This document shows, one piece after another, positions 5,899 through 32,620 of a stretch of DNA of 64,000 bases (its first letter is position 1; each line of letters begins with the position of its first letter). Below the pieces are notes generated by a model, which was not told where the DNA came from, made no database searches, and saw only the letters and a program-made list of their open reading frames with translations. This DNA comes from Parcubacteria group bacterium. Its GTDB lineage: Bacteria > Patescibacteriota > Patescibacteriia > Buchananbacterales > UBA6539. Location: the NCBI GenBank assembly GCA_002687175.1, contig NYZP01000001.1, positions 149,607 through 213,606 on the forward strand. Direction: 5' to 3'. The position numbers and the translations under genes are program-made.

Positions 5899-5927
5899 TT
5901 GACAAATTCCAAATATCATGATACTAT
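5899..5927 (+). promoter_or_regulatory. Sigma70-like promoter, TTGACA-N17-TACTAT
   Basis: TTGACA at 5899-5904, a 17-nt spacer, TACTAT at 5922-5927. AAGGAG at 5966-5971 lies downstream. Confidence 0.45.
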
Positions 5928-5953
5928 TGAATGTTGTTAAATAGCAACATAAA

Positions 5954-6247
5954 TTGCAACCTAAAAGAAGGAGTGATTACAATGATCCAAATTTCATGAT
6001 CGCAAATATCGTCGACTCTATCGTCGATTTCGTTGACAACTGGGTATGGATTTGGCTGATCGCTTCGGTCGCCTCGGTGTTGCTAATGCTGGCTTGTAGT
6101 AACGCGTGGGAAAAACTTGAGGACAAAAAGCATCAGCCTTTGCTGTGGGGCACTTGGACCTTCGGATTCCTTCGATTACCGTTCAGCATCTTGCTCATTG
6201 TTTCCGTTTATATCAACCTTATCAGGGCTTATGTCTATGTCGCCTAG
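5954..6247 (+). CDS. Small two-TM membrane protein of atypical (higher) G+C; the real start is probably the ATG at 5996
   Basis: Frame open from a TTG at 5954. Two hydrophobic helices (WVWIWLIASVASVLLMLA; FGFLRLPFSILLIVSVYINLI). Codon usage is GC-rich relative to its neighbours. It is preceded by a mini-ORF MIQIS whose TGA stop overlaps the ATG at 5996 (ATGA). Confidence 0.5.
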   Translation: MQPKRRSDYNDPNFMIANIVDSIVDFVDNWVWIWLIASVASVLLMLACSNAWEKLEDKKHQPLLWGTWTFGFLRLPFSILLIVSVYINLIRAYVYVA

Positions 6248-6278
6248 CGCAACCAATCGCCCTGAACAATGTTTATAG

Positions 6279-6330
6279 GCTGTCTCTAAGGAGACAAAAA
6301 CGACCCGCCTGTTAAGTGGTCGTTTTTTCT
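6279..6330. terminator. Bidirectional intrinsic terminator between convergent genes
   Basis: Hairpins GTCTC-taagg-GAGAC and AAACGACC-cgcctgttaagt-GGTCGTTT, followed by TTTTTT (6323-6328). Confidence 0.55.
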
Positions 6331-6350
6331 TTTATAATTTTCTGACTAAT

Positions 6351-7190
6351 TCAGGAATATTGACCGCGTTGATCTTCTGGTAGCATCTCGGCAATAACCT
6401 TTGCAACCTGATCAGCTTGTTTTTTTAGTTCTTGATGAACTTGGCTAAATTGTTCTCTTTCTTCTGGGCTAATTTTTTCACGATTTTTTCTTTTTTCTAA
6501 AACCTCCTCGATAATACTAACGTCAGTCTCCGGTAAATCAATAATATCTCCAACGTGATAGATAGCCTCTGCTCTCTTGGCTACACCCTTGGCCAATTCA
6601 AGTGGTCCTTCTAAATTAATTGAACCGCCTTCCAGTTCTAAGGCAGTGGGAATGATTTTAGCTCCGGTTTTGTGTGCTAAATATACTGAACCAATTTTTG
6701 GATCTTGCATTTCCTCTTCAAGGGTGAAAGGATGAATAGCCATCCAGGGGGTTTTGCCGTCTTCAATTTGTTCGGAAAGTAACTTAAAATCGTCAGGATT
6801 AAAAACTCCATGTTTCCCCTTTTTGGTTTTTTTATATTGTAAAGAAGTGAATTGATCTTTACCGGCTAGTCTAAAAAGCACTTCTTGTGGCGTTGCACCA
6901 CGCAGAACTGATTCGGTAGTAATCTGAATATCGAGTTTATCTCCTAAAGCTTTAATTGCCGCGGGGGCATCAAGGTTAGAAATATGTGAAGACGCCACTA
7001 TAAATTTCGAATCCGGTTCAACTTCCTGAATTTGTGTTAAATTTTCCTTACCATCAACCGTAAATTCCTTACAAAAAAGACCAAGAACTTTATCAACTTT
7101 ATTGCGTAAAGCCTCGTTAGTAACATTACTTTTTGCCTCTTTTGGTTGATTAGCTTCTGGAGGAATATAACTGGGAGTCTCTGGAGTCAT
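6351..7190 (-). CDS. Putative lysophospholipid/glycerolphosphate acyltransferase family protein (HX4D motif)
   Basis: VASSHISNLDAPAA contains H-x4-D. No other strong motif. TGA stop. Confidence 0.35.
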   Translation of the reverse strand: MTPETPSYIPPEANQPKEAKSNVTNEALRNKVDKVLGLFCKEFTVDGKENLTQIQEVEPDSKFIVASSHISNLDAPAAIKALGDKLDIQITTESVLRGATPQEVLFRLAGKDQFTSLQYKKTKKGKHGVFNPDDFKLLSEQIEDGKTPWMAIHPFTLEEEMQDPKIGSVYLAHKTGAKIIPTALELEGGSINLEGPLELAKGVAKRAEAIYHVGDIIDLPETDVSIIEEVLEKRKNREKISPEEREQFSQVHQELKKQADQVAKVIAEMLPEDQRGQYS

Positions 7191-7205
7191 ATTTTTCTAT
7201 ATTAA

Positions 7206-8789
7206 TTAAAAATCTTTCTTATGTCTAACTATTTTTTGATAATTAATAGCAAACCGATGAGCTTCGTCCCTGATTCGTTGCAAAAGCTTCAACGAGTCGG
7301 CTTTCTTGCTTAATCTTAACGGAAATTTACTATATAAAGTATAAATCTCCTCATTTTTCTTGGCAAGGGCAATTAGCGGAACATCTTGCAGACCTAATTC
7401 CCTTAAAGACTGCTTGGCTGCTGAAAGTTGCGGCTTACCGCCATCCACCATCACCAAATCTGGCATTTTTGATTTTTCTTTGGTGATTTTATAGTAACGA
7501 CGAAACACAACTTCTTTCATCGCATCAAAATCTGATTGACCACGAACAGTTTTAACTTTAAATTTGCGATAATTATTTTTATCGGGCTTGGCATCTTTAA
7601 AATGAACCATAGAACCAACTACTCCAGTTGGTCCAAGGTTAGAAATGTCAAAGCATTCAATTATGCGTGGCAACTTTGGTAAATTTAATTTATTTTGTAG
7701 CTCCAGTAAGCTGGAATCGCCGGCGGTTAAGTTAACTTCAATATTTTTCTTAACCATCTTTAACAATTTTAACTTGTCACCTTTCTGTGGCACAAACAAC
7801 ACCACTTTACTACCAGACAACTTTGATAAATATTTATTAATCACTTCAGCGTCAGCAAACTTAACTGGCACGATGATTTCTTGGGGAATGTCATTACTGT
7901 AATAAAACTGTTTGATAAACTCTGCTACTTCCTCGACCACACTACGTCCAGGAAGCTTTTGTAATTTAAACTCTTTACGACCAGAAATTATGCCTTTATT
8001 GATGTTAAACAGTTGTACAACAATTTTGTTCACTATTTCTAAGTAGTTGATAACGTCTTGATTATATCTTTTTTGCAGCTGAACTTTTTGACGAATAGCT
8101 AAATTTTCCAAAGCATTGATCTGATCACGACGCAGTTTGGCCAGCTCATACTTTTTCTGGGTAGAAAACTTTTTCATTTCTACTGCTAAATTTTTAACTA
8201 ACACTTTAGTATCACCTTTAAGTAGCAAGATTGCCTTGGCTAAATTATTTTGATAATCTACTTCGCTCATCTTTTGAACAAATGGTACCGAAGAGCTATG
8301 GTAATGATAAAGCTCACCCACCTTTTTTACTTTACCACCAACCCGTAACTTAAACAGTTGATTGGCTAACCGGATGGCATTTTGTCTGGCCGACCCAGAC
8401 GTATATGGTCCAAACACTTGATCACCTTTTTTTATCACTCTAGTCACCACCAAACGAGGAAAAAGTTCCGTCGTCACTTTAATATAAGCGTAGCAGACGC
8501 TGTCTTTAAGTTCAATGTTGTATTTTGGTTTATGTTGACGGATTAATCCGGCTTCAAGCAGTAAGGCTTCAACTTCATTGTCAGTTATTATAAATTCAAC
8601 GTCATTAATCTGTTTCACTAAGTCTTTAGTCTTAGCATCTTGATTTTTTGAACGAAAATAAGATGGAACACGCTTAGCTAAACTTTTTGCTTTACCAATA
8701 TAAATAACTTTACCCCCAGCATTTTTAAATAAATAACATCCTGGCTGCTTAGGTATTTTTTTTAATTTAGTTTTTAATAATTTTGTCAT
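7206..8789 (-). CDS. uvrC: Excinuclease ABC subunit C (UvrC), short form
   Basis: N-terminal GIY-YIG (GCYLFKNAGGKVIYIGKAKSLAKRVPSYF). C-terminal RDEAHRFAINY endonuclease motif. Confidence 0.85.
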   Translation of the reverse strand: MTKLLKTKLKKIPKQPGCYLFKNAGGKVIYIGKAKSLAKRVPSYFRSKNQDAKTKDLVKQINDVEFIITDNEVEALLLEAGLIRQHKPKYNIELKDSVCYAYIKVTTELFPRLVVTRVIKKGDQVFGPYTSGSARQNAIRLANQLFKLRVGGKVKKVGELYHYHSSSVPFVQKMSEVDYQNNLAKAILLLKGDTKVLVKNLAVEMKKFSTQKKYELAKLRRDQINALENLAIRQKVQLQKRYNQDVINYLEIVNKIVVQLFNINKGIISGRKEFKLQKLPGRSVVEEVAEFIKQFYYSNDIPQEIIVPVKFADAEVINKYLSKLSGSKVVLFVPQKGDKLKLLKMVKKNIEVNLTAGDSSLLELQNKLNLPKLPRIIECFDISNLGPTGVVGSMVHFKDAKPDKNNYRKFKVKTVRGQSDFDAMKEVVFRRYYKITKEKSKMPDLVMVDGGKPQLSAAKQSLRELGLQDVPLIALAKKNEEIYTLYSKFPLRLSKKADSLKLLQRIRDEAHRFAINYQKIVRHKKDF

Positions 8790-8826
8790 CAGTTTTATAT
8801 TTTTTATCTTAACACAGCAATTTTTA

Positions 8827-8855
8827 TTGACAAACCCAAATAGATATGATATACT
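8827..8855 (+). promoter_or_regulatory. Near-consensus sigma70 promoter, TTGACA-N17-TATACT
   Basis: TTGACA at 8827-8832, a 17-nt spacer, TATACT at 8850-8855. Confidence 0.45.
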
Positions 8856-8907
8856 AATGGTAGTAGATGTTCATCAATGTTTTTATATACTACTGGAGGA
8901 TTTTCTC

Positions 8908-9027
8908 ATGCATACGGACAGCTACTATCGCACATTTGGTAGGCAAAAACGCAGTCCACTCGATTTTTCCTTCGGGATTTATCACTTCTTCAGAAATTGG
9001 AGAGAAATAATTGGACTAAAGCCATAA
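8908..9027 (+). CDS. Candidate small basic/aromatic protein of 39 aa (or sRNA) with its own promoter, SD and terminator
   Basis: GGAGG at 8895-8899 is 8 nt upstream of the ATG at 8908. Product MHTDSYYRTFGRQKRSPLDFSFGIYHFFRNWREIIGLKP. Followed by the hairpin AGCGTC-tctcgaca-GACGCT plus a T-run. Confidence 0.3.
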   Translation: MHTDSYYRTFGRQKRSPLDFSFGIYHFFRNWREIIGLKP

Positions 9028-9140
9028 ATCCGAATGGATCCACTCGGCACAAAGCGTCTCTCGACAGACGCTTTTGCCATCTGTAAAATACAAGACGCCT
9101 ATTATTAAAAGGCTGTTTTTTTATTTCATTATCATTTGCT

Positions 9141-11969: not shown

Positions 11970-11983
11970 AATTTAACTTTTCA

Positions 11984-12012
11984 TTGACAATTTAATTAAT
12001 TTATGATATAGT
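11984..12012 (+). promoter_or_regulatory. Near-consensus sigma70 promoter, TTGACA-N17-TATAGT
   Basis: TTGACA at 11984-11989, a 17-nt spacer, TATAGT at 12007-12012. AAGGAG lies 9 nt before the ATG at 12060. Confidence 0.5.
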
Positions 12013-12059
12013 GCGTAGTTAAAATAGAAACTAAAACGTTCTTCAAGGAGATCTTTAAC

Positions 12060-12533
12060 ATGATTACGTTCATGGAGAAGCCCGCTACACAAGAGGTAAT
12101 TACTCCTACTCAAGCCAGAGACAGGATCTCAAACAGGGAAACGCTCAGCGGTTTTAAGATCAACGGTGATCTGGACCTACGAGGTCTTAGAACTCCTGGA
12201 CATCTGAACATTCGTGGAGTCACCATCGATGGCGATCTCCTGCTTACTGGGGCAAACATTGGCCAAGGCCTAGATATTGGCGATGCCGATGTTTGGGGTC
12301 TAGTCAATCTTTCTCGGATCAATGTCGGCGGAAAACTTTTCCTACTTGGTACTAAAGTTGGCACATCGTTGAGCTTGTTTCGAGCCACCATCGTTGATGA
12401 CATCAATCTGCATAAAGCAGAAGTGGCTGGCATGATCGACCTAACCGGTACAAACATCGTATCTGGAAAATTAATCACCGGCAATATGCAAGTTGGTCGT
12501 GTCCACGGAGGTGTTGCTCTCTTGGCTTCTTAG
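12060..12533 (+). CDS. Pentapeptide-repeat-like protein of atypical (higher) G+C
   Basis: Continuous 5-residue periodicity (GDLDL RGLRT PGHLN IRGVT IDGDL LLTGA NIGQG LDIGD ADVWG LVNLS RINVG ...). GC-rich codons (ctg, ggc, atc), unlike the flanking uvr genes. Confidence 0.55.
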   Translation: MITFMEKPATQEVITPTQARDRISNRETLSGFKINGDLDLRGLRTPGHLNIRGVTIDGDLLLTGANIGQGLDIGDADVWGLVNLSRINVGGKLFLLGTKVGTSLSLFRATIVDDINLHKAEVAGMIDLTGTNIVSGKLITGNMQVGRVHGGVALLAS

Positions 12534-12560
12534 TCATCTGGCAAAAACACGCCACATACC

Positions 12561-12600
12561 CCCTCAATGAATTTTATTCGTTGAGGGTTTTTATTTTTAT
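12561..12600 (+). terminator. Intrinsic terminator
   Basis: CCCTCAA-tgaattttattcg-TTGAGGG followed by TTTTTATTTTTAT. Confidence 0.55.
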
Positions 12601-12602
12601 AA

Positions 12603-12690
12603 TTTTTCTTTCAACTTTTCAACCTTATCTCTTAACTCAATAGCCTTTTCAAAATCTAACTCTTCAGCGGCAGCGGTTCTCCGGTAGCAG
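12603..12690 (-). repeat. Diverged duplicate of the uvrB 3' end (UVR-domain remnant) just downstream of the uvrB stop
   Basis: The minus strand in the +1 frame reads ..AAAEELDFEKAIELRDKVEKLKEKL*. The authentic UvrB C-terminus (12697-12790) reads ..AAEELDFEKAIDLRDKIDSLKNKLK*. By eye the DNA is about 70-75% identical. Confidence 0.6.
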
Positions 12691-12696
12691 ACTTCG

Positions 12697-14673
12697 CTAC
12701 TTTAATTTATTTTTTAAACTATCAATCTTATCTCTAAGGTCTATGGCTTTTTCAAAGTCTAATTCTTCCGCCGCCACTCGCATCCGCCCTTCCAGATCTA
12801 AGATCACTTTATCAAGTTCCAGCTCTTTTCCTTTCTCTCCTGGCTCAATCACCACTTCTTCTTCAGCAATAGCTTTAACTATTGATTTTGGAGTAATACC
12901 GTGTTTTTTATTATAATCTGCTTGAACTTTACGACGACGGTTAGTTTCATTGATCGCATCTCTGATTGAACCAGTCTGACGGTCAGCATACATGATAACC
13001 CGGGAATGAACATTTCTGGCCGCCCGACCACTGGTTTGAATCAAACTCCTGGTATTACGTAAAAAACCTTCTTTGTCAGCATCCAAAATTGCCACCAGGG
13101 CCACTTCCGGAATATCCAAGCCTTCTCGTAACAAATTAATTCCCACTAAAACATCATACTTGCCAACTCTAAAATCTCTAATTATTTTAATTCGTTCCAT
13201 TGATCCAATATCAGAATGCATATAAACCGCTTTAATGTCATTATCAATCAAATGATAACTTAAATCCTCGGCCATTCTTTTGGTTAAGGTAGTTACTAGG
13301 GTACGGTGACCCTTCCTGATTACTTTTTTAATTTCTGTCATCACATCATTAATTTGTCCATCAACCGGTTTAATGGTAATTGGTGGATCAATTAGGCCAG
13401 TTGGTCGTACTACTTGCTCAACAATTTTTTTACTATTTTCAATCTCGTAATCTCCGGGGGTGGCAGAGGTGTAAATTACATGATGTAAATATTTCTCAAA
13501 CTCCTTAAACTTTAACGGTCTATTATCTAATGCACTGGGTAAGCGAAACCCGTAATCAACTAAATTTTCCTTTCGGGCTCGATCACCATTATACATTCCA
13601 TGAACTTGGGGAACACTTTGATGACTTTCATCAATGACAAACAACCAATCTTTTTTAAAACGATAATTAAAAAAATCTAGCAATGTGTAAGGTGGTTCTC
13701 CAGGCTGACGATTGTCAAAATGACGAGAATAATTTTCAATCCCTTTACAATAACCAAGCTGTTCAATCATCTCTAAATCATAATTTGTTCGTTGTTTTAA
13801 ACGATGAGACTCAACCGTATCAAGTTTTGGTAAACGCTGCTTTAACTCTTTTCTAATTGATGATAAGGCCTTAGGAATTCGTTCACTGGGTACGACAAAT
13901 GGTCTAGCCGGATATATCCAAACATCTTTTAAATCTTCTAGCTTTTGTTTGGTCATGGCCTGAATTTTAGTCAGCTTATCAACTTTGTCACCTAGTAAAT
14001 TAATCCTGATTAAATAGTTACTGGCATAACCGGGGAATAGATCGATCGTGTCACCTTTAGCTCGAAATAATCCTGGTTTAACTTCCATATCATTTCGCTC
14101 ATACTGAATTGAGATTAATCTACTTAGTAATTCTTGGCGATCTATTTTTTGACCTTTTTTTAAATAGAAACTTTCATTTTCAAAATCTTGTGGTTGACCA
14201 AAGCCATAAATGCACGAAATAGACGAGACAATAATAACATCATCTTGCGACAGCAATGAAGTGGCTGCTTCTAGCCTAAGCTGCTCAATCTTTTCATTAA
14301 TATCGGCATCTTTTTCAATATAAGTGTCCGAAGCTGGCAAATAACTTTCTGGTTGATAATAATCATAATAAGAAATAAAATAATTAACTTTATTGTCTGG
14401 AAAAAATGTTTGAAATTCTTGATAAAGTTGAGCCGCTAAAGTTTTGTTATGAGATAGTACTAGAGTCGGCTTTTGAATTTTATCAATAACATTAGCAATA
14501 GTATAAGTTTTACCAGATCCGGTCACACCTAAAAGCGTCTGATTACTATTTTTATTATAACCAGACACCAATTGTCTTATCGCCTTAGGTTGATCTCCTC
14601 TAGGGGGGTTAGCTTTGTTTAACTGAAACTTAGACATATTAAGCTTAGAGGACCGCAAGCGAGTCCCCTTCAA
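12697..14673 (-). CDS. uvrB: Excinuclease ABC subunit B (UvrB)
   Basis: LLGVTGSGKTYTIANVI Walker A, helicase motifs and a C-terminal UVR domain. 658 aa. Confidence 0.95.
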   Translation of the reverse strand: MKGTRLRSSKLNMSKFQLNKANPPRGDQPKAIRQLVSGYNKNSNQTLLGVTGSGKTYTIANVIDKIQKPTLVLSHNKTLAAQLYQEFQTFFPDNKVNYFISYYDYYQPESYLPASDTYIEKDADINEKIEQLRLEAATSLLSQDDVIIVSSISCIYGFGQPQDFENESFYLKKGQKIDRQELLSRLISIQYERNDMEVKPGLFRAKGDTIDLFPGYASNYLIRINLLGDKVDKLTKIQAMTKQKLEDLKDVWIYPARPFVVPSERIPKALSSIRKELKQRLPKLDTVESHRLKQRTNYDLEMIEQLGYCKGIENYSRHFDNRQPGEPPYTLLDFFNYRFKKDWLFVIDESHQSVPQVHGMYNGDRARKENLVDYGFRLPSALDNRPLKFKEFEKYLHHVIYTSATPGDYEIENSKKIVEQVVRPTGLIDPPITIKPVDGQINDVMTEIKKVIRKGHRTLVTTLTKRMAEDLSYHLIDNDIKAVYMHSDIGSMERIKIIRDFRVGKYDVLVGINLLREGLDIPEVALVAILDADKEGFLRNTRSLIQTSGRAARNVHSRVIMYADRQTGSIRDAINETNRRRKVQADYNKKHGITPKSIVKAIAEEEVVIEPGEKGKELELDKVILDLEGRMRVAAEELDFEKAIDLRDKIDSLKNKLK

Positions 14674-14730
14674 AAAATCAGTAATAAATTTGTTACTTTA
14701 TTATAACAGAGCTTAAAATAAAGTCAAAAT

Positions 14731-15423: not shown

Positions 15424-15428
15424 ATCAT

Positions 15429-16394: not shown

Positions 16395-16404
16395 AATTTT
16401 ATAT

Positions 16405-17018: not shown

Positions 17019-17516
17019 TTAACGACTGACTGTAATAGCCGGTCTTTCACCAGCAATATCCTCTTCGTTACATGACCCAACGGTAATTCGGCCACTGGCC
17101 GAACGATAAACAAAATAATCAGTGTCTGCAGCATCAGGTGTTAAAGGGTCTTCAGGAATTTTAGAAAGATAGGTTGGTACTAAATCACTACTGAGATCAA
17201 TACAGGCGACCGGGGTGGTAGTGGCAACACCAGCAAGTCCATAAGTGCAATCATCACAATCAAGAGTACCGGTACCAAGTTTGTATGTTCCGGTGAATTC
17301 ATTTGTTAAAGCAGTTGGTAAAACTCCTTTATTATCAACCGTATATTTCAAAATACCATTTAAGATAGCGTTAGTTGAGCTCCACCTTTCGGCGTTTCTG
17401 GCTTCAGATAATCGCCTAGCTGGATCAACAACCACATATATAATAGCGGCTAAGATGGCGATGATGCCAATAACTATTAAAAGTTCGATCAGAGTAAAAC
17501 CTTTATATTTTTTCAT
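17019..17516 (-). CDS. Type IV pilin-like protein (prepilin N-terminal methylation motif)
   Basis: KGFTLIELLIVIGIIAILAAI. Confidence 0.7.
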   Translation of the reverse strand: MKKYKGFTLIELLIVIGIIAILAAIIYVVVDPARRLSEARNAERWSSTNAILNGILKYTVDNKGVLPTALTNEFTGTYKLGTGTLDCDDCTYGLAGVATTTPVACIDLSSDLVPTYLSKIPEDPLTPDAADTDYFVYRSASGRITVGSCNEEDIAGERPAITVSR

Positions 17517-17593
17517 AAATTCACCCCCTTCTTTAATTAAATTATTTTTATATTAATTTACTAACTAAATTATAACATAAAACTGTTTAATTG

Positions 17594-20402: not shown

Positions 20403-20909
20403 GGTGTGTAATTAATTTTAATTTCTTGAAATATTGGCGTGTCTAATCCGTCACCACTCAAAAAAAGTTTATACTTTAGCCATTGATCATCATTATGACC
20501 ATTGGTTAAAGGAATTAAAATCTCGGCTCCATCATCATAAAAACTTCCCGCCCCAGTCGGCCCCATCCAGGCTGACCAAGTACCAGGTGAACCACCGTCG
20601 TCAGGAGCTGTGGCAAGTTGTACTTGGATATCTTCAGCCCCTGAAGGCAGGGTCTCTAGTCAAAATAAAAAATTAAATGATGCGACATTAGTAGTATCAA
20701 AAGCTGATGATTCTAAAATACCGTTAGTGGCATAACCCGAACCTGAATCTTCTCCCCAGCCAATCCGTACATTGTCAAGCTGAACTTGTTGACTACCATC
20801 GCCAGTTAAAAAAGCCTGAAACGTAATCTCATGAAATAAAACGACGATACTGCTACTTAGTAATATCGTTGATGTTTTTTACACTCTTATATTGTGATTA
20901 ATCGAGAGA

Positions 20910-22069: not shown

Positions 22070-22074
22070 AGAGT

Positions 22075-22809: not shown

Positions 22810-22852
22810 TTTATTGACATTTTTGTTTTATTGGCTACCAAATTGATATTTT

Positions 22853-23806: not shown

Positions 23807-23814
23807 AATGTAAT

Positions 23815-24765: not shown

Positions 24766-25213
24766 AAATTCATTAAATAATACTCGTTAATTATATCAAA
24801 AAACCGCCCATAAGGCGATTTTTCGTACCTCTGAAAGTTCGTTTTTTATGTCTTCATACTCTTGGTATCCCTTCGGGGAGCTACTTTTGTAACCAAAAGT
24901 AGCCAAAAGTTCCGGGGGCCTTTATTCGCCTTATGGGCGGTTTACCTATAGCTCTCTCGCCAGGGGCTCAGAACGGCCCCCGGACCCCCGCCCACAAGAA
25001 CATTACTGTGGTATTAAATCTATAGAGGCAAAATCATTAGCAAAAAACTAATAAATGGGGGTTTGGGGGCGGCGCCTTAGCGCCCCTATAGATACGGCAG
25101 AGGGTTAATCAACGTGATAGCGATTCGCCGCCCCCAAGAGTTTTCTGACCACTTTTGCGGCCAAAAGTGGTCACCGCCGTCAGGCAGAACAATACCACAC
25201 GGGTGACAAAAAT
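24766..25213. other. GC-rich, ORF-free, hairpin-dense block (candidate structured RNA or MITE-like element) of undetermined family; on the minus strand it forms the leader of glpX
   Basis: 18-bp perfect inverted repeat AAACCGCCCATAAGGCGA (24798-24815) with its complement at 24920-24937. 9-bp hairpins CTACTTTTG/CAAAAGTAG and CCACTTTTG/CAAAAGTGG. A UUCG tetraloop hairpin (cccTTCGggg). GGGGCGGCG/CGCCGCCCC long-range pair. CCCCCAAACCCCC on the minus strand. No ORF of 60 aa or more. Confidence 0.4.
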
Positions 25214-25699
25214 TTAAATCTGATCAGCAATAGCAATATCGTACTTTTCCGAAATAATCTGCTGAATTGTTTTGAGGTGCTGCTCACCAACTTCTTCAGT
25301 AATAGCGGTGGCAAAATATTCAGCTAATAGTGGATTACCATGACCTTCTAGAATTTCACCAATGCACTCACCACAAGGATGCCTGCCATCAACAATATCA
25401 ACTAAACAATGACAACTAGCTCCCTCACCATGGCCAGGAGTTTTTTCCAAACAGTAAGTACAAGGTTTCTCTAAACAACAAGCATAATCACCATGGGTCA
25501 TCATTTCTCCCATCATCGAATTCTTCATGGTAATAAAATGCTCTCGATTATGTTCCATATTACCAAAACTGATATCAGCCATCATATGATGTCGGCTACC
25601 GCTGAAACCACCAAAAAAACCAAAGCTAATAACAACTATTACCGCTAAAAGCAAAACCATACTAGAATAAAACGGAAATTTATTATTTAAGTTATTCAT
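25214..25699 (-). CDS. Cys/His/Met-rich secreted or membrane-anchored protein, putative metal binding; start probably MNNLNNK
   Basis: HHMMADISFGNMEHNREH and CCLEKPCTYCLEKTPGHGEGASCHC...CGEC. Confidence 0.35.
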   Translation of the reverse strand: MNNLNNKFPFYSSMVLLLAVIVVISFGFFGGFSGSRHHMMADISFGNMEHNREHFITMKNSMMGEMMTHGDYACCLEKPCTYCLEKTPGHGEGASCHCLVDIVDGRHPCGECIGEILEGHGNPLLAEYFATAITEEVGEQHLKTIQQIISEKYDIAIADQI

Positions 25700-25709
25700 G
25701 TTTTTGAGA

Positions 25710-26192
25710 TTAAAAATTAATTGAATTAGTAACTGCACCATCATGCAGGGCAAAGATCTTAAAATCTCCCCTCTTAATTCCTGGCATGCCTGATGAACCA
25801 GCCGGCATTCCCGGCAAAGCAACAACCTCTAAATCAGGGTTTTGCTCTCTAATCATGGTTACGGCATCCAAAGGAACATGACCTTCAATAGCCACGTCAT
25901 CCATTACCGTAGTATGACAACTTTGCATGTTGTGCGGGATATTATACTTATCTTTAATATCAGCAGTATCGTTAGTAGACACTACCGTGACATCATAACC
26001 ATTTTTCTTAAGATAAGAAATATAGTTAACGCAACAACCACATGACAGCGATTTATAGACAGTTACTTTTGGACCTGTACCGTTAGATATTGGATCGGTT
26101 GAATCACCAGAAAAGACTAGAGCAATAATAACCGCAATCATTGCACCCCCAATGAAACCATACATTAAATTTTTATTAAGAGTATTATTCAT
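25710..26192 (-). CDS. CopG-like CxCC protein (DUF411-like), copper-associated thioredoxin-like fold
   Basis: VYKSLSCGCCVNY...CHTTVMDDVAIEGHVP pattern. N-terminal TM helix. Confidence 0.45.
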   Translation of the reverse strand: MNNTLNKNLMYGFIGGAMIAVIIALVFSGDSTDPISNGTGPKVTVYKSLSCGCCVNYISYLKKNGYDVTVVSTNDTADIKDKYNIPHNMQSCHTTVMDDVAIEGHVPLDAVTMIREQNPDLEVVALPGMPAGSSGMPGIKRGDFKIFALHDGAVTNSINF

Positions 26193-26262
26193 AAAATATT
26201 TTGATTAATCATAACAAAAAAACCTACTCTTAAATTCAAAGAATAAGCTTATTAAATCTTAG

Positions 26263-26670
26263 CTAGTAAATTTTGGGATGAATACTCCCCTGACTAAATA
26301 GAGGGGTTAAATAGACAAACAGTTTAAAATCACCAAACTGTTGATGAATATTTTTAAAATAATTATTGACTGAATTTAAATTTTTATATAAATGCTTAAT
26401 CAGCAGTAAGAATAAAACGCTTACCGATAAACCTAAAATCAAGACATCAGCTGTTGCCAGAACAGTATTTTTGATTACTCCTAAATATTGGGCTTGGCAC
26501 ATGTTCTGATGACCCATCATTAAACAATGAGAATGGGATCCAAAGATTACAAAAATACTGGCATAAAGTAATATACCAACCATGCCAAAAACAAAAGCGG
26601 TCAGTATGGTGGTTCTGCCAATATTTTTTAAATTTTTAATCATATTAATTCTTATAATATTATTATACAA
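26263..26670 (-). CDS. Small polytopic membrane protein with HSHCLMMGHQNMC motif
   Basis: Three hydrophobic helices. Confidence 0.35.
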   Translation of the reverse strand: MYNNIIRINMIKNLKNIGRTTILTAFVFGMVGILLYASIFVIFGSHSHCLMMGHQNMCQAQYLGVIKNTVLATADVLILGLSVSVLFLLLIKHLYKNLNSVNNYFKNIHQQFGDFKLFVYLTPLFSQGSIHPKIY

Positions 26671-26704
26671 CTACATTTAGTAGTAGTCAAATTAAGTGAA
26701 TTTT

Positions 26705-26746
26705 TTAAATTAAAAAATCTCCCTTGTTCATCCTTGAACAAGGGAG
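26705..26746 (-). terminator. Strong intrinsic terminator
   Basis: 12-bp perfect stem CTCCCTTGTTCA-tcc-TGAACAAGGGAG with an adjacent A/T run. Confidence 0.6.
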
Positions 26747-26764
26747 GTGGTACCGCGGCAAGAC

Positions 26765-27421
26765 TTACAAATCTCTGGGTTTGAAACCACCCATGGACGT
26801 TTGTGTCATACTCATGGTTGCGTCTCTGACACCTTGTGGTGTGGCCACTACAGTTACTGCGTGCTCGTCATCCGTTGGAAAACCCATGCCTTTGGCCAGT
26901 TCCTTGGCATCAATACCAATGCCGAAAGTCAAAAGTTCCCAACCCAGTGACTGTGCCTCGGCGGCGATGGCTTGCAGCGCTTCCGGCTGCAAAGATTTAT
27001 CCGATTCATTATCATCGCCGTCGCTGAAAACACCGATCACTACTCTGGTATCATCCCGCAATTCTGTCGGAATTCGCGACCGGTAAAAATTGAGAAGATC
27101 GTTAATGGTCTTATTGACCGTTTCCCAAAGTAGGGTCATGGCATGAGGACGATAGCCCTCAAGCATACCGAAGTCTTCCACTGGCATCAAGGGAATCTTC
27201 ACCTCATTGTCACTGGCGAAAGTGATGACCGCACAAAGATATTGTCGTCCATCATCACATTTCCTTAATGCTTCGTGATGGGCGTCCATCGCTTCCGGCG
27301 GTGTATTTCCATACTCCTCCATCGAGCCTGATTCATCAAGAATCGATACAGCAATAGTGGTCGCCTTCCCAGTGGTAATCTTCGTTTGAGCTGGTACTAT
27401 CGCAAACCCATTTTCGGTCAT
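26765..27421 (-). CDS. von Willebrand factor A (vWA) domain protein of atypical (higher) G+C
   Basis: MIDAS motif ILDESGSM (DxSGS), vWA fold spacing. Likely start MTENGF, preceded by AAAGGAGGG. GC-rich codons. Confidence 0.6.
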   Translation of the reverse strand: MTENGFAIVPAQTKITTGKATTIAVSILDESGSMEEYGNTPPEAMDAHHEALRKCDDGRQYLCAVITFASDNEVKIPLMPVEDFGMLEGYRPHAMTLLWETVNKTINDLLNFYRSRIPTELRDDTRVVIGVFSDGDDNESDKSLQPEALQAIAAEAQSLGWELLTFGIGIDAKELAKGMGFPTDDEHAVTVVATPQGVRDATMSMTQTSMGGFKPRDL

Positions 27422-27587
27422 AATCCAGCCCTCCTTTCTTGTTAGTGAAACCTCCATCAAGAAGTTGACATCAGCAAAATACTGAGCAACTGTTGATGTT
27501 ATACTAATTATTAAATTTTGTCAATACTAAAAACCGCCTTTCCTTGTTAATTCGCCACACCAGTGATTTAACAAGATAAACGGTTTA

Positions 27588-28751: not shown

Positions 28752-28757
28752 AGATCT

Positions 28758-29294
28758 TTATTCAAAAATTACTGGCACTTCAAGCTGATCATCAAGTTCT
28801 CTAAGATCGGAAGGATTATCTTTTTGTAAAATCAACTTTCCTTTACCGAAACCAGGAGAACTAAAGTCAAGCTCTGCCTCAAAAGACACAAAATCTTCTG
28901 TCATCCATTCGCCTTGCGCTGTGGCAATACCAACAGCAATTTGCTCGCCAGCGGCGTTCAATAATCTAACTGGAAAATCTCCTTCAAAAAACCAAACCCC
29001 ACTGGCACTTCCGATAATTTTTAAAGGACTCCTAATAACTTGACTTGGTCGTGGTGATTCAATCCTGATTAAATCCATTTTTTCCAGTTCATTACCAATA
29101 TCCTCGACGAAAATTTGATCACCGGCTCGACATTGCCTAGGGTAACTTTTCATAATAGAATTTCCAGCCGCTACACAATCTTCAAAACTTAAAATTTGGT
29201 CATTATTAGTGACAAGATCATCTTTAACATAATAAAAATAACCAACAATCAAAATTGCTAATGCTAAAATAATTAAAAGAAAATATTTTTTCAT
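28758..29294 (-). CDS. Hypothetical exported/lipoprotein-like protein
   Basis: N-terminal hydrophobic helix. No motif. Confidence 0.35.
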   Translation of the reverse strand: MKKYFLLIILALAILIVGYFYYVKDDLVTNNDQILSFEDCVAAGNSIMKSYPRQCRAGDQIFVEDIGNELEKMDLIRIESPRPSQVIRSPLKIIGSASGVWFFEGDFPVRLLNAAGEQIAVGIATAQGEWMTEDFVSFEAELDFSSPGFGKGKLILQKDNPSDLRELDDQLEVPVIFE

Positions 29295-29540
29295 CTATAA
29301 ATTAAAACCAAATACATAAAATGCTAAAAAAGTATGGATCAATACTGAAACAAAAAAAGCCCACCAATAATAACAATGATACTTATATACTTTCTTAAAC
29401 CATGAGTATCTAAACAACCAAGTTGTAATTTTTTGGCCGGCTAAACAACGGCAAGAAAAAAACACTAACAAAATAAAAATTACGTTAGCAATACCAGCCC
29501 AAAATAATATTTTTACAGCCAGAGCAGTATCAAGCATCAT
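29295..29540 (-). CDS. Small membrane protein
   Basis: 81 aa with two hydrophobic helices. Confidence 0.3.
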   Translation of the reverse strand: MMLDTALAVKILFWAGIANVIFILLVFFSCRCLAGQKITTWLFRYSWFKKVYKYHCYYWWAFFVSVLIHTFLAFYVFGFNL

Positions 29541-29553
29541 TATGATTTAATCA

Positions 29554-30120
29554 CTAGTTAACAATCAAAGTTCCTTCCATGCTACCATGGCCTGAGCCAC
29601 AAAAAACTGAACAGAAAAACCTGAAGCTACCAGATTTATCAGCCACAAACTCAATAGTGGTTATTTCACCAGGATTTAGATCTGAATTAACCCCAAATTC
29701 AGGAATGGCAATGCCGTGTTTTACATCGATACTGTTAATAATCATTTTAACGGTATCGCCTTTATTGACCGTAATAGTTGATGGTACAAAATCCCACTGT
29801 TTGGCTACCATGTCAAAGGTCTTTATGGTTGATACTGGATCATTATCACCGGCAACATCTTCGGGGTCAGGTGGCGGTGGCGGTGCTGTATCAAGATTAG
29901 CATCACCATCGGCTTCGGGATCAGGTGGCGGTGGTGGATTATCAGTTAATGGAAAATCACCGTCTGTTTCGGGATCAGGTGGCGGTGGTACATTGTCGAG
30001 ATTACCAGCTTGATCGCCCCCAGTGCCGGTAGCATCATTATTCGCCGTTCCCTGGTTTAAACAACCACTGATCACCAATCCAGTGATTAATAAGCTGAAA
30101 AGTAAGAAAAATTTTTTCAT
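29554..30120 (-). CDS. Cupredoxin-like lipoprotein with CuA-type ligand motif
   Basis: Lipobox LITGLVISGC, Pro-rich PPPPDPE repeats, C-terminal FFCSVFCGSGHGSMEG (C-x3-C-x3-H-x2-M). Confidence 0.5.
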   Translation of the reverse strand: MKKFFLLFSLLITGLVISGCLNQGTANNDATGTGGDQAGNLDNVPPPPDPETDGDFPLTDNPPPPPDPEADGDANLDTAPPPPPDPEDVAGDNDPVSTIKTFDMVAKQWDFVPSTITVNKGDTVKMIINSIDVKHGIAIPEFGVNSDLNPGEITTIEFVADKSGSFRFFCSVFCGSGHGSMEGTLIVN

Positions 30121-30148
30121 ATTTTTTTAATTAGTTATTTAATTTATA

Positions 30149-30415
30149 TTAAGGTAATGTTTGACGGTCAGCAATTTCAGCTATTACATCACTTTCCGTC
30201 TGGGCTTGCTTACGGGCCATTGTCTCCTCATTAGATAAACGCTCGTCAACAATTGACCTAATATCTTCAACAACATCTCCGTTACCACTACCAATTGCTT
30301 TAGCCAACTCATCAAATTTATCTTCTTCTAGTCTCAAAGCCCCTTTGCTTAAATATGGAAGATTCTTTTTCAAAACCGCTGTTTTGCCTTCGGCAATTAA
30401 TGTGGCCATCATCAT
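30149..30415 (-). CDS. Hypothetical protein
   Basis: 88 aa, overlaps the upstream gene by 4 bp. No motif. Confidence 0.3.
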   Translation of the reverse strand: MMMATLIAEGKTAVLKKNLPYLSKGALRLEEDKFDELAKAIGSGNGDVVEDIRSIVDERLSNEETMARKQAQTESDVIAEIADRQTLP

Positions 30416-31281
30416 AATCCGTTCCTCGGCCTTAGCTCTTTTAGCCCGACGGTCAGAATATTAATCATAAAATCTTGCAGTTTCTTTATTAAGACATCTT
30501 TATCTTTTAACATTTCAGCTTTCATCTCAGCGGGTATGGCTTTAACAAAAACCTCAGCCGCTTCTTGAATGCTGGCCACACCATAATTTAAAACGGGATC
30601 TAAATCTACCGGGACAGTTTCACCATCATCGCCTTTAATCTCAATTTTGCTATGACCAATTTGAACTTTTTTTAATAAGTCATGTACCTCCTCGTCTGGC
30701 TTTGGAGCAATGATCGCAAACTCATCCCCGCCAATACGGTAGGCAACACTTTTAAGTTTATCGTCGCTCACATCTGGTTCCTCTTCGGCAATCACCTCAG
30801 TCATATCATTGGCCATTTCTTCTAAAATTTTATCACCACCACCATGGCCACCACCGAAGTGCTTGGTAATTTCAGGATCTTCATTATACTTACTCAAAAA
30901 ACCTAGATCGATTGAAGTTACTGAAAAATCGATTTTTCCTAAATGTTCTAAATCTTCATCACTTAATGAATCCTGTTCAAGCAATTTTAATAATTTATCA
31001 TCATTATCTAAATGACCCTCTAAATTATCATATAACCTATTAAAAAAGTTACCTCTGTTTTCCAGCCCCGTTAAGGTGTCTCGTTTTAACTTCTCAATCT
31101 GTTCTTTAAGATCTAATACTTCGCCTTCCAATTCTAATTTTTTTCTTTCGGCGGCATTAACTCTTCTTTCTCTGCGTTCATTCTCTGTTTTTGATTCAGC
31201 AAGCTCTTGCTCTAAACGAGCAATCTTTTCCGCATCGCTTTCTTTGTCTGGTGATCCAGATCCACCTTCCGGAGATACCAT
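30412..31281 (-). CDS. GGDEF-domain protein (putative diguanylate cyclase) with N-terminal coiled coil
   Basis: LTGLENRGNFFNRL and RIGGDEFAII. Confidence 0.65.
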   Translation of the reverse strand: MVSPEGGSGSPDKESDAEKIARLEQELAESKTENERRERRVNAAERKKLELEGEVLDLKEQIEKLKRDTLTGLENRGNFFNRLYDNLEGHLDNDDKLLKLLEQDSLSDEDLEHLGKIDFSVTSIDLGFLSKYNEDPEITKHFGGGHGGGDKILEEMANDMTEVIAEEEPDVSDDKLKSVAYRIGGDEFAIIAPKPDEEVHDLLKKVQIGHSKIEIKGDDGETVPVDLDPVLNYGVASIQEAAEVFVKAIPAEMKAEMLKDKDVLIKKLQDFMINILTVGLKELRPRNGL

Positions 31282-31335
31282 AATTTAAGAATTATTTATA
31301 AAAAAGAATGCAAGGGCCGTATAGATCCTTGCATT
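31282..31335 (-). terminator. Intrinsic terminator
   Basis: Minus strand: TGCAAGG-atctatacggc-CCTTGCA followed by TTCTTTTTT. Confidence 0.5.
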
Positions 31336-31674
31336 TTAAGCAGAAGAGGTAGCGGTAGGTGTTTGATTTTCAGAAGTGACAGAAAAAGCAGAGCAGGTTG
31401 ATGTCCAAATTTCATCAAAGTCAATCTGTCGTCCGTCAGTAAGACGGTCTAATTCTTGTTCGTTTGTGACGCCCAGGGCTTTCATCAATAAAGACAACGC
31501 AGAATCCACACCTCGTGGAGACCACCCTCTCTTTAATCCCTCGATTTGCTCCCTTGCGGTAGCGTGTGTTGATGCCTTTTTACTTGCCATCAACCTTGAC
31601 GCCGGGTCCGCACGTGTCGGAAACAGCTCTATGGGTGTAAGTTTTTTTGTAGTATCCATAATAACTGTCTCCAT
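31336..31674 (-). CDS. Small hypothetical protein of atypical (higher) G+C; start METVIMDTTKK
   Basis: Own TTGACA-N17-TATTAT promoter and RBS. GC-rich codons. No motif. Confidence 0.4.
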   Translation of the reverse strand: METVIMDTTKKLTPIELFPTRADPASRLMASKKASTHATAREQIEGLKRGWSPRGVDSALSLLMKALGVTNEQELDRLTDGRQIDFDEIWTSTCSAFSVTSENQTPTATSSA

Positions 31675-31695
31675 TTCCTTCTTGTGCTTAAAAAT

Positions 31696-31724
31696 ATAAT
31701 ACAATGGAGACCTAAAATTGTCAA
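31696..31724 (-). promoter_or_regulatory. Consensus-like sigma70 promoter, TTGACA-N17-TATTAT
   Basis: Minus strand reads ttgacaATTTTAGGTCTCCATTGtattat. Confidence 0.5.
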
Positions 31725-31741
31725 TGAATATTTTACATAAA

Positions 31742-31785
31742 ATAAAAAGCCCCATGTTCTTAATTTTGAACATGGGGGTCGTGAT
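31742..31785 (-). terminator. Intrinsic terminator
   Basis: CCCCCATGTTC-aaaattaa-GAACATGGGG followed by CTTTTTATTTT on the minus strand. Confidence 0.55.
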
Positions 31786-31809
31786 GTTTCTCTGCAATGT
31801 CGCGGAGTG

Positions 31810-32379
31810 TTAGAGTGTGTAAGGAACAGCGCCACCAGTTACGGTGTCAATACGGATCGCCTCCGGTGGTTCAAAGCCAGTGGCTCCGGCTATTGCGACG
31901 ATCTCGTCTTGGTTAACACCGTCACCACTTACGCCAAGGCCACCGACCAATTTTCCATTAATATAGAGCGGAACGCTTCCGGGAAATTCGATGATCCCGT
32001 GCTCGCGGTTACTGTTGCCGATCTGCCACAAATCTCCGTCAGGCTGTGAAAGTAAGCCGATTGAATGGGAGGTTAAGGCATTTTCATCGCTAGAAAAAGC
32101 CATGGCGGTAAAAGCTTTAGATTTGGCAATACTTATGCTGCCAAACCAAGCACCGTCCATTGATCGGTGATCCATTGTCATTTCATCAATGCGAGAGACA
32201 CAGAGTTCCATCCTGCAAGTCTGAGGCTTGCCCTCGGCATCCACGCGCAGTAGCGAAAGAAGACCGTTTGCCGTCGATTCCGCCTGATCTAAGATCTTAT
32301 TGACCATCTGTTCCGACAGAACATTTTCCTTATCTTGACTCGAAACACTGTTGGCCAATGCTGTCAGAGGTAGCACCAC
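31810..32379 (-). CDS. GlcG/HbpS-like DUF336 protein of atypical (higher) G+C, possibly secreted
   Basis: LYINGKLVGGLGVSGDGVNQDEIVAIAG and AKSKAFTAMAFSS patterns. The in-frame upstream extension KKLLLSRKSSIIITFLVVLPLTALA looks like a signal peptide but has no ATG. Confidence 0.5.
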   Translation of the reverse strand: MVLPLTALANSVSSQDKENVLSEQMVNKILDQAESTANGLLSLLRVDAEGKPQTCRMELCVSRIDEMTMDHRSMDGAWFGSISIAKSKAFTAMAFSSDENALTSHSIGLLSQPDGDLWQIGNSNREHGIIEFPGSVPLYINGKLVGGLGVSGDGVNQDEIVAIAGATGFEPPEAIRIDTVTGGAVPYTL

Positions 32380-32620
32380 GAGAAACGTGATTATGATGCT
32401 GGACTTTCGGGAAAGTAAGAGCTTCTTTATTGGTAATCCTCCCTTGCAAAGTTTTTACACAGTTAATATTTCTGAAATATTACTCTGTTTAATTTTCCTC
32501 CCTTTTCTCCTTTCGCTAATTGGCTGAGTGCTAATTAGTTGTTGTTTTACACTATTTTTTAAAAAATGTCAATAATAAAATAAAGGACCAAATAATCAAG
32601 GTCCTCTATTTAAAAATATA

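Follow-up and report, generated by a model that had tools for sequence, protein, structure and literature searches.

The window analysed here, a stretch of 64,000 nucleotides, carries uvrABC, trxB, pilM, glpX, fba, glnA and other genes whose Pfam matches mark it as bacterial chromosome. Its host is a marine, AT-rich member of the Parcubacteria with a backbone GC of 0.357 (~36% G+C), and the DNA belongs to a Parcubacteria MAG scaffold from Tara Oceans. The nearest relatives are distant, with best values of 62% for UvrA (among the matches listed) and 47% for UvrC, and a metagenome scan with a neighboring 279-aa protein gave no match. Competence/pilus genes are present in the form of pilM and a pilin gene. 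A phage genome, to which the tRNAs and a GIY-YIG gene had pointed, was rejected, as megablast against a phage collection gave no match and Pfam indicated a bacterial chromosome.

Dispersed among these genes are five single-gene units, c1 to c5, and one further unit, c0, that was absent from the earlier list:

5899-6333, plus strand: c1; putative promoter TTGACA-N17-TACTAT with TG at 5899-5927, Shine-Dalgarno site GAAGGAG at 5967-5973, ORF 5996-6247, terminator region with hairpins at 6281-6296 and 6300-6323 and then a T-run
8827-9125, plus strand: c0; putative promoter TTGACA-N17-TATACT with TG at 8827-8855, ORF 8908-9027, two hairpin/T-run elements
11984-12597, plus strand: c2; putative promoter TTGACA-N17-TATAGT with TG at 11984-12012, Shine-Dalgarno site AAGGAG, ORF 12060-12533, terminator 12561-12587 with a T-run
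26712-27524, minus strand: c3; putative promoter TTGACA-N17-TAACAT at 27524-27496, Shine-Dalgarno site AAGGAGG, ORF 27421-26765, terminator 26746-26719 with a T-run
31300-31724, minus strand: c4; putative promoter TTGACA-N17-TATTAT at 31724-31696, ORF 31674-31336, hairpin 31334-31308 with a T-run
31740-32572, minus strand: c5; TTGACA at 32572-32567, N17 and TAAAAC, 5' hairpin 32539-32515, Shine-Dalgarno site AGGGAGG, likely ORF 31810-32430, terminator 31777-31750 with a T-run

This map places c3, c4 and c5 on the minus strand, a correction to the earlier list, and alters two ORFs. c1, previously drawn from 5954 to 6247, retains its two predicted transmembrane helices but most likely starts at ATG 5996, which overlaps the stop of a 5-codon uORF at 5982-5999 (ATGA) and yields a protein of 83 aa. 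In c5, previously drawn as 31810-32379, the homologous N-terminus (a signal peptide) lies upstream of GTG 32379, in a region with no canonical start codon; translation likely begins at ATA 32430, 7 nt after the AGGGAGG. The additional unit c0, with a 39-aa ORF antisense between uvrC and uvrA, has the same architecture as the other five and a G+C of 0.40, with no clear elevation. The spacers that house the five units separate uvrB from uvrA, the 279-aa gene from a Big_13 gene, GSDH from the 26263-26670 gene, and glnA from a GGDEF gene.

As a sequence pattern, all five units combine TTGACA, a 17-nt spacer, a -10-like hexamer, a Shine-Dalgarno site and a hairpin with a T-run. Each would thereby consist of a single ORF flanked by its own promoter and its own intrinsic terminator, signals that are presumably used in vivo. 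The first-pass annotation had described a Shine-Dalgarno site for every unit, a promoter of this type for three and a terminator for all except c5; the promoter pattern extends to all five, and c5 has both a terminator and a TTGACA. Its further claim that backbone genes lack such textbook signals was mistaken. Promoters matching 10-11/12 positions precede uvrB (14727), 26263-26670 (26690), 48525-49268 (49314), the tRNA operon (51103), 36477-37802 (36279), the pilin gene and others. Because these backbone operon starts score equally well, the promoter contrast between units and backbone fails.

The units and their junctions were 100% identical across up to six independent assemblies (ENA, NCBI, Logan and JGI). 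The identity included 300-600 bp of flank on each side in the Tara scaffold, GCA_002434675.1, ERZ909154, ERZ11848503 and Logan SRR5321589, and c1, c3, c4 and c5 are annotated in a second NCBI MAG (locus tags CMI53_).

Base composition of the units

Measurement bore out the initial impression that the five ORFs are compositional outliers. Compared with a backbone GC3 of 0.275 (sd, 0.035; maximum, 0.342; n = 54 ORFs), GC3 was 0.63 in c1 (z 10.1), 0.45 in c2 (z 4.9), 0.48 in c3 (z 5.9), 0.39 in c4 (z 3.2) and 0.51 in c5 (z 6.6). The difference from host composition by which horizontally acquired genes are recognized was thus found at z values of 3.2 to 10.1. A test against 5,000 same-length backbone coding windows agreed: none (0/5000) reached the G+C of c2, c3 or c5, and ~1% (at most 1.3%) reached that of c1 or c4. 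The excess is restricted to the ORFs, while the 5' regions have a G+C of 0.25-0.34; as this is close to the AT-richness of the host, the promoters may be of local origin and not have been imported. From backbone to units, AAG rose from 0.25 to 0.48 and ATC from 0.14 to 0.51, while TTA fell from 0.49 to 0.12. Because C-ending and G-ending codons both rise, the shift appears to be a general compositional one.

Three further G+C-rich islands in the window are non-coding. Known RNA families were considered as a cause of G+C-rich islands and rejected, as the Rfam matches were tRNAs only. mRNA folding z values of -2.0 to -4.3 for the units, terminators included, were unremarkable relative to the non-coding islands.

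Gene families and their relatives

The c5 product gave an essentially full-length match to PF03928 (DUF336) of 71.4 bits, against a curated cut-off of 25 (profile positions 5-127 of 128), in line with its original assignment as GlcG/DUF336, and it shares 76 invariant columns with seven homologues. It is predicted to be a secreted haem-binding-type protein. Hundreds of proteins are 58-70% identical to it, and the named ones belong to Planctomycetota or Phycisphaerae. In L098/L099, two assemblies of one context on contigs of 60% G+C, the c5 homologue has backbone composition, with a GC3 of 0.72. Such ~60% G+C relatives of native composition lend direct support to a probable acquisition of c5. 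With an identity of no more than 70% to any relative, the transfer would not be recent, and slow amelioration would then have to account for the G+C excess that remains. As an unlikely side reading, the Planctomycetota-like GlcG gene may mark the physical host of this episymbiont.

c3 encodes a stand-alone, cytoplasmic vWA domain of 218 aa with a complete MIDAS motif. Its Pfam VWA (PF00092) score of 23.0 bits falls just below the 23.8 cut-off. Nonetheless, the DxSxS...T...D motif is invariant in 16 homologues (D29, S31, S33, T96 or T101, D134 or D137), and the structural model (pLDDT 92) matched vWA domains with a Foldseek probability of 1.0 and a TM of ~0.6, so that the vWA identity proposed for this gene holds. 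Among the 15 c3 homologues, all named ones come from Parcubacteria, Magasanikbacteria or Patescibacteria; since these relatives are other CPR bacteria, any transfer of c3 would have occurred within the phylum. Protein identity among the vWA homologues is only 33-56%, and the genomic context differs at each locus. GC3 of the vWA gene exceeded the host median in 6/6 loci, slightly in hosts of intermediate G+C (L095 and L100) and strongly in AT-rich ones (0.73 versus 0.32 in L102), and in three of the five other loci (L091, L093 and L100) the gene adjoins tRNA genes. Good support for a putative acquisition of c3 comes from this combination of a family whose named members are all CPR bacteria, a G+C above that of the host in all cases, and frequent tRNA neighbors. 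Selection acting on the coding sequence is another possible cause of an excess over all hosts.

For c2, which encodes 157 aa and lies antisense between uvrA and uvrB, the argument is one of position. The uvrB-uvrA gap in the window measures 727 bp, compared to 0-90 bp in 27 of the 40 fetched loci with an adjacent, co-oriented pair. In distant CPR and other bacteria, the pair is either compact or separated by a spacer with different genes; the spacers of other CPR loci likewise hold different genes, and in an AT-rich member of the Patescibacteria (L004) the spacer contains an unrelated antisense ORF with a GC3 of 0.46 versus 0.20. A normally contiguous pair that is split here supports the acquisition of c2 as a candidate event. 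Pentapeptide repeat proteins are characterized by tandem repeats of five residues that build a right-handed quadrilateral beta-helix. No direct Pfam match was obtained for c2, even at E=1. An exhaustive HMMER search reached a best E of 4e-28, with 27-38% identity, among the matches listed, to repeats in long proteins, and these relatives carry PF13576 (Pentapeptide_3). One of five AlphaFold models was a confident all-beta solenoid (pLDDT 89; the other four, 45-58), whose top PDB match was a pentapeptide-repeat protein, albeit a weak one (E=7e-3, TM 0.32). c2 thus appears to encode a beta-helical protein whose repeats are related to those of Pentapeptide_3.

The remaining two genes, like c2, have no close homologues. 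The c1 protein belongs to no family in Pfam, PHROG, NCBIfam or PADLOC, and an NCBI Parcubacteria MAG has an annotated protein identical to its 83 aa. No homologue of c4 (112 aa) was found beyond this population, and its cluster members are all identical except for the called start. For c1 and c4, support for a foreign origin is compositional only. Co-transfer of c4 with c5 was considered and set aside: a gene of 111 aa follows downstream in one GlcG context and is missing from a second.

Origin of the units

Taken together, these data make it probable that each of the five units is a single gene, or islet, that an AT-rich Parcubacteria chromosome acquired horizontally and separately from the others. 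The repeated gain of foreign single-gene modules, as first proposed for this DNA, is the best-supported reading, with direct evidence for c5, good evidence for c3, positional evidence for c2 and composition for c1 and c4. Single genes would have landed in intergenic spacers and kept the codon usage and the raised G+C of the DNA from which they derive. Each would be transcribed on its own, from a sigma-70-type promoter to an intrinsic terminator, and translated from a Shine-Dalgarno site; such signals would be needed because a gene lying between or antisense to housekeeping operons would otherwise go unexpressed and not be tolerated by its neighbors. The sources probably differ: a high-G+C lineage (with Planctomycetota-labelled relatives) for the GlcG/HbpS-like gene and a family circulating among CPR bacteria for the vWA gene, while the pentapeptide-type, 2-TM and 112-aa genes would be orphans. 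Plausibly, the DNA would have entered through the competence/type IV pilus apparatus and then been integrated by illegitimate recombination. We infer both the direction and the mechanism of transfer.

Whole promoter-gene-terminator modules might instead be mobile, like phage morons, and spread among CPR bacteria by G+C-richer phages or mobile DNA. This would produce the architecture seen here, a self-contained unit whose composition is atypical and whose neighbors are unrelated genes. Furthermore, TTGACA-N17 promoters also precede the vWA homologues of L091, L093, L100 and L102, hairpin terminators occur at the first three and possibly at L102, three homologues adjoin tRNA genes, and c3 matches PHROG 7371 (E=1e-15) and is ~30% identical to hypothetical proteins of large Streptomyces phages. 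However, the sequences upstream and downstream of the vWA homologues are dissimilar except for the hexamers; the five units have no direct or inverted repeats or att-like sites in common; no phage, integrase or transposase genes were found near them among the annotated genes; and no relatives of c2 or c3 were found in viral contigs (IMG/VR). We consider such modules rather unlikely.

A related idea, which we also hold to be unlikely, is that the G+C excess is a lasting property of certain CPR accessory families, not the fading trace of a recent transfer. In each CPR genome examined, the stand-alone vWA gene surpasses its host in G+C, and the uvrB-uvrA-uvrC spacers of AT-rich CPR bacteria repeatedly contain unrelated, G+C-rich antisense single genes. 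If true, preferred sites would be seeded with single-gene units from a mobile, G+C-rich reservoir, either phage or plasmid, belonging to CPR bacteria or to their hosts; alternatively, selection would keep these coding sequences at high G+C.

Native genes whose G+C-rich codons are kept by selection for very high expression or stable mRNA, with strong signals as part of the same adaptation, are a quite improbable explanation. All five units have a perfect TTGACA -35 and strong Shine-Dalgarno sites, the G+C excess begins and ends with the ORF, NNC codons rise strongly, and the vWA homologues keep their excess in all six CPR loci despite their low identity. On the other hand, GC3 is not high in native genes for which good expression would be expected (pilin 17019-17516, 0.27; glnA, 0.31; fba, 0.32), and GroEL does not exceed the locus median in two CPR loci (0.18 versus 0.25 and 0.53 versus 0.53). 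G-ending codons are also up, c5 has relatives in high-G+C genomes, and backbone promoters are equally good.

The earlier suggestion of one dispersed system that unites the five products, whose role might be in defence or at the surface, is very improbable. All that favors it is that the five lie within 27 kb and share a composition and an architecture. The other families were absent from the flanking sequence retrieved (6-8 kb, or as far as the contig reached) around the vWA homologues in five other loci and around the GlcG homologues in the one other genome available (L098/L099), no PADLOC defence model matched, and the taxonomic ranges are very different (CPR only, PVC-like, or orphan). Finally, the stereotyped "textbook" layout might recall an artefact, whether a planted or engineered set, as the first-pass annotation had raised, or a chimeric assembly with reads of a G+C-richer organism, but this is almost certainly wrong: because units, junctions and flanks are identical in independent assemblies, with four units annotated in a second MAG, the units are neither planted nor chimeric.

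Under the favored reading of separate acquisitions, this window offers an example, at single-gene resolution, of accessory gain by ultra-small CPR genomes. The gains would comprise a product predicted to be secreted and of the haem-binding type, a vWA protein with a MIDAS motif, a protein built of beta-helical repeats, and small membrane proteins; each acquired gene would arrive as, or turn into, a transcription unit insulated from the core operons on either side. Promoters and terminators of "textbook" quality are the norm in this lineage and do not point to engineering. Composition-based scanning is effective in AT-rich CPR genomes, and the probable donors, PVC-type bacteria and other CPR, may offer a clue to ecological partners.

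Comparison with known gene-transfer systems

Phage morons, described by Hendrix and colleagues, sit between conserved phage genes as autonomous units of promoter, gene and terminator with an atypical composition. The units resemble them in having one gene, a putative promoter and intrinsic terminator of their own, a differing composition and, for c2, a position between uvrB and uvrA, which are adjacent in relatives. Unlike morons, which reside in a (pro)phage genome, they lie in a bacterial chromosome among housekeeping genes (uvrABC, trxB, pilM, glpX, fba and glnA), with no prophage genes and no viral relatives. Integron cassettes are usually promoterless, end in attC and form head-to-tail arrays beside an integrase. 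They too are single-gene modules of varied function and foreign composition; the present units, in contrast, are dispersed and have their own putative promoters, and the window holds neither a repeat family in the place of attC nor an annotated integrase. With tRNA-linked genomic islands, the units have atypical G+C in common, and vWA homologues abut tRNA genes in three other CPR loci; the units in the window, however, measure 0.4-0.8 kb and lack an integrase, direct repeats and tRNA linkage.

The nearest counterpart comes from a study of 125 Patescibacteria genomes, which reports individually transferred genes and islands of up to 13% of the genome, exchanged mostly among Patescibacteria with some donors from other phyla (PMC12455944). 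Those transfers were inferred by phylogeny among co-assembled MAGs, whereas the evidence here is mainly compositional, without an identified donor genome; the regular promoter/terminator layout and the uvr-cluster location are not known to feature in that study. The likenesses are a streamlined CPR host with single foreign genes between core genes and the presence of competence/pilus genes, here pilM and the pilin gene. Moreover, exchange within the Patescibacteria would parallel the vWA gene, and donors from other phyla the GlcG gene. Separate horizontal acquisition in these bacteria is thus known and fairly ordinary, and a new mechanism is not required.

Composition and expression signals of the five genes

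Five genes had been singled out by a first-pass annotation as high-G+C outliers, each with its own signals. Their coordinates required correction, since c3, c4, and c5 lie on the minus strand and the starts of c1 and c5 were revised. The genes and related features are as follows:

5996-6247 (+), c1, 83-aa protein with two hydrophobic helices
12060-12533 (+), c2, pentapeptide-related protein
26765-27421 (-), c3, stand-alone vWA domain
31336-31674 (-), c4, 112-aa protein
31810-32379 or 32430 (-), c5, GlcG/HbpS-like protein
31777-31750 (-), c5 terminator, hairpin plus T-run
32572-32567 (-), c5 TTGACA, from sequence reading
8827-9125 (+), sixth unit, antisense, in the uvrC-uvrA spacer: consensus promoter at 8827, ORF 8908-9027, two terminators

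In 400-nt windows, background G+C was mostly 0.27 to 0.42, and local peaks of 0.45 to 0.50 fell at the places reported. The outlier status is real and statistically strong: G+C at third codon positions (GC3) was 0.63, 0.45, 0.48, 0.39, and 0.51 for c1 to c5, compared to 0.275 ± 0.035 (maximum, 0.342) for 54 ORFs of the AT-rich backbone, giving z-scores of 3.2 to 10.1. Among 5000 random, length-matched backbone coding windows, none matched the G+C of c2, c3, or c5, and about 1% matched that of c1 or c4. GC1 and GC2 were close to the backbone; thus, the shift is mostly synonymous, with C-ending and G-ending codons rising alike. The excess was limited to the ORFs, and the promoter-to-start stretches had 0.25 to 0.34 G+C.

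In all five units (promoter, ORF, and terminator), a perfect TTGACA is separated by 17 nt from a −10-like hexamer; an AGGAG-type Shine-Dalgarno site precedes the ORF, and a hairpin with a T-run comes after it. This bears out the view that each gene has its own signals and extends it to c5, whose terminator and TTGACA had been overlooked. The supposed promoter contrast with the backbone did not hold: matches at 10 to 11 of 12 positions also precede backbone units, namely, uvrB, the genes at 26263-26670 and 48525-49268, the tRNA operon, and the methylase, pilin, and DJ-1 genes. The 8827-9125 unit is laid out like c1 to c5, without a clear G+C excess; its 39-aa ORF is basic and aromatic (MHTDSYYRTFGRQKRSPLDFSFGIYHFFRNWREIIGLKP), and the ENA record calls no gene there.

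Translation of c1 most likely starts at ATG 5996. A 5-codon ORF with a Shine-Dalgarno site 8 nt before it ends in a stop codon overlapping this ATG (ATGA), an overlap that suggests coupled translation of the two. Alignment with seven homologues placed the c5 signal-peptide region upstream of GTG 32379, where no canonical start codon for it was found. ATA 32430, 7 nt past AGGGAGG, is a candidate start; translation would then begin at a non-canonical codon, unless the start has been lost.

Gene products and origins of c3 and c5

The c5 protein has a signal peptide and matched PF03928 (HbpS/GlcG, DUF336) with 71 bits. For c3, the Pfam score (23.0 bits) fell just under the cut-off (23.8), PHROG 7371 matched at 1e-15, and the MIDAS residues were invariant in 16 homologues; its AlphaFold model (pLDDT, 92) matched vWA domains with a Foldseek probability of 1.0. 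Pfam gave no direct match for c2. The relatives found with HMMER (E values as low as 4e-28, 27 to 38% identity among the matches listed) are repeats within proteins of 600 to 1500 aa that carry Pentapeptide_3; one confident model is a beta-solenoid, and PDB matches were weak, the top one being a pentapeptide-repeat protein. Family searches gave no match for c1 or c4, and PADLOC defence models matched none of the five proteins.

The backbone belongs to a bacterial chromosome with 36% G+C, and its genes include uvrC, uvrA, uvrB, thioredoxin reductase, pilM, a type IV pilin, glpX, a class II aldolase, glnA, rpoD, dnaG, ligA, and gatA. The closest UvrA among the matches listed from 185,579 species representatives was 62% identical and the closest UvrC, in JGI metagenomes, 47%; judged by these matches, the lineage is deep. 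An exact copy of UvrA lies on TARA_SAMEA2619974_METAG-scaffold_6 (242 kb), NCBI assigns several window proteins to a 'Parcubacteria group bacterium' MAG (locus tags CMI53_), and a second NCBI assembly, GCA_002434675.1, has the region.

Only 15 relatives of c3 were found, and all named ones are Parcubacteria, Magasanikbacteria, or Patescibacteria. GC3 of the vWA gene exceeded that of its host in the window and in 5 of 5 other fetched contexts (L-numbers denote fetched comparison loci).

GC3 of vWA genes and their hosts
Window: c3 0.48, host 0.28
L091: gene 0.69, host 0.43
L093: gene 0.54, host 0.40
L095: gene 0.67, host 0.60
L100: gene 0.62, host about 0.56
L102: gene 0.73, host 0.32

The genomic context differed at every locus fetched. 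The vWA genes of L091, L093, and L102 stand alone, their neighbours being on the other strand, and those of L091, L093, and L100 lie 50 to 150 bp from tRNA genes. A TTGACA-N17 promoter match was present at each homologue except the L095 copies, and hairpin terminators were seen in L091, L093, L100, and possibly L102. On the simplest account, the family belongs to mid-G+C CPR (Patescibacteria) lineages, being nearly native in L095 and L100, and was passed to AT-rich CPR. We also observed two tandem vWA paralogues in one Patescibacteria contig (L095, 6951-8561), about 600 bp downstream of holA; the L091 homologue is likewise beside holA.

c5 has 544 relatives, the best 58 to 70% identical, and the few with names belong to Planctomycetota or Phycisphaerae. 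In L098/L099, one context of 60% G+C, the homologue adjoins rpmB, dnaG, and rpoD and is native in composition (GC3, 0.72); two JGI contexts showed PVC-type neighbours. Since the GC3 of c5 (0.51) is intermediate between this homologue and the backbone, c5 fits a transferred, partly ameliorated gene.

The uvr spacers and other elements

uvrB lies upstream of uvrA on the same strand in 40 of 80 fetched UvrA loci, with a gap of 0 to 90 bp in 27 of the 40. In the window, c2, encoded on the opposite strand, fills a gap of 727 bp. Two Patescibacteria loci, L004 and L012, have gaps of similar size, about 700 bp. In L004 (36% G+C; backbone GC3, 0.20), the spacer holds an antisense 136-aa ORF unrelated to c2, with a GC3 of 0.46, a Shine-Dalgarno site, and a terminator hairpin; in L012, the spacer gene matches the backbone in composition. 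The nearest UvrC relatives (L103, L104, L106, L107, and L116) have 0.5 to 3 kb of other genes of ordinary composition among uvrB, uvrA, and uvrC, and the cluster of more distant relatives is compact. Given these differing occupants, spacer content is variable across CPR genomes; the occupants in the window and L004 look the most recent. L004 comes from an AT-rich Patescibacteria MAG; elsewhere in this locus, a pair of neighbouring nitronate monooxygenase genes (12615-14622, about 2 kb; G+C 0.54, GC3 0.57 versus 0.20 for the backbone) directly follows a six-tRNA array, a textbook foreign island.

Further elements were noted in the window:

51392-51975 (+), 580 nt, about 49% G+C, non-coding; directly 3' of two tRNA genes and 5' of terminator 51953-51971; apparently co-transcribed from promoter 51103; folding z = -8.5 versus shuffles
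24790-25215 (-), 430 nt, G+C about 0.50, non-coding, upstream of glpX-fba; several long hairpins with perfect stems, and a terminator at the end; folding z = -6.1
48115-48515 (+), 400 nt, G+C-rich, non-coding, between convergent genes; nested long inverted repeats, e.g., GGGCGGGCAAAAA...TTTTTGCCCGCCC; folding z = -8.0
51169-51290 (+), 122-nt tRNA gene, an unusual length; the anticodon region carries about 50 inserted nt
51311-51390 (+), tRNA-Lys(CTT), 77 to 80 nt depending on the tool, an unusual length
46101-46631 (+), first 47 nt of tRNA-Ser(TGA) (46533-46579) duplicated at 46201-46247 (94% identical), flanking a 120-aa GIY-YIG endonuclease ORF (46218-46580); third copy of an upstream motif at 46101-46136
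42472-42918 (-), three tandem tRNA-Asn(GTT) genes in 161- to 162-nt repeats
20403-20909, 500-bp gap, G+C moderately raised (0.42 to 0.44), only broken ORFs on both strands

Rfam gave no match for the three non-coding islands (for 51392-51975, even at E < 0.5). The first may be a large structured RNA not previously described, and the second a leader/regulatory RNA or a separate small-RNA gene; within the third, an 82-aa ORF (48211-48459) is probably spurious. The tRNA genes at 51169-51290 and 51311-51390 may contain introns or insertions, 46101-46631 resembles the outcome of a homing-endonuclease insertion in which part of the tRNA gene was duplicated, and 20403-20909 may be a decayed gene remnant.

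Alternative accounts and known systems

The five genes look like foreign single-gene acquisitions, and this part of the first-pass interpretation stands. Selection for G+C-rich codons in native, highly expressed genes would also account for the vWA pattern, the strong signals, and the restriction of the shift to the ORFs; however, the window's own pilin, glnA, and fba have a GC3 of 0.27 to 0.32, GroEL is not GC3-enriched in two CPR loci, G-ending codons are raised too, and high-G+C relatives are clear for c5. The units may instead move as whole modules through phages, but no positive sign of this was found, and the sequence around the vWA homologues is not conserved. The proposal that the products form a single dispersed system is unsupported, as none of the other families occurs within the fetched flanks (6 to 8 kb, or to the contig end) of vWA homologues at five other loci or of the GlcG homologue in L098/L099. 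Planting or engineering, also raised earlier, is excluded, as is chimeric assembly: the units with 300 to 600 bp of flank per side are 100% identical, with the same junction sequence, in up to six fetched records (for c2, L001 and L082-L086), which come from five independent assemblies (ENA, NCBI, and Logan), and the proteins recur in JGI and Tara catalogues.

As foreign single-gene acquisitions, the units look like a fresh instance of something already known. They resemble phage morons in function and architecture, but their surroundings are chromosomal and lack prophage genes; unlike integron cassettes, they have no attC sites, array, or nearby integrase. They fit the individually transferred genes of Patescibacteria described in PMC12455944, which ascribes up to 13% of a genome to horizontal transfer, mostly by exchange within the phylum, with competence and pili as the proposed route.
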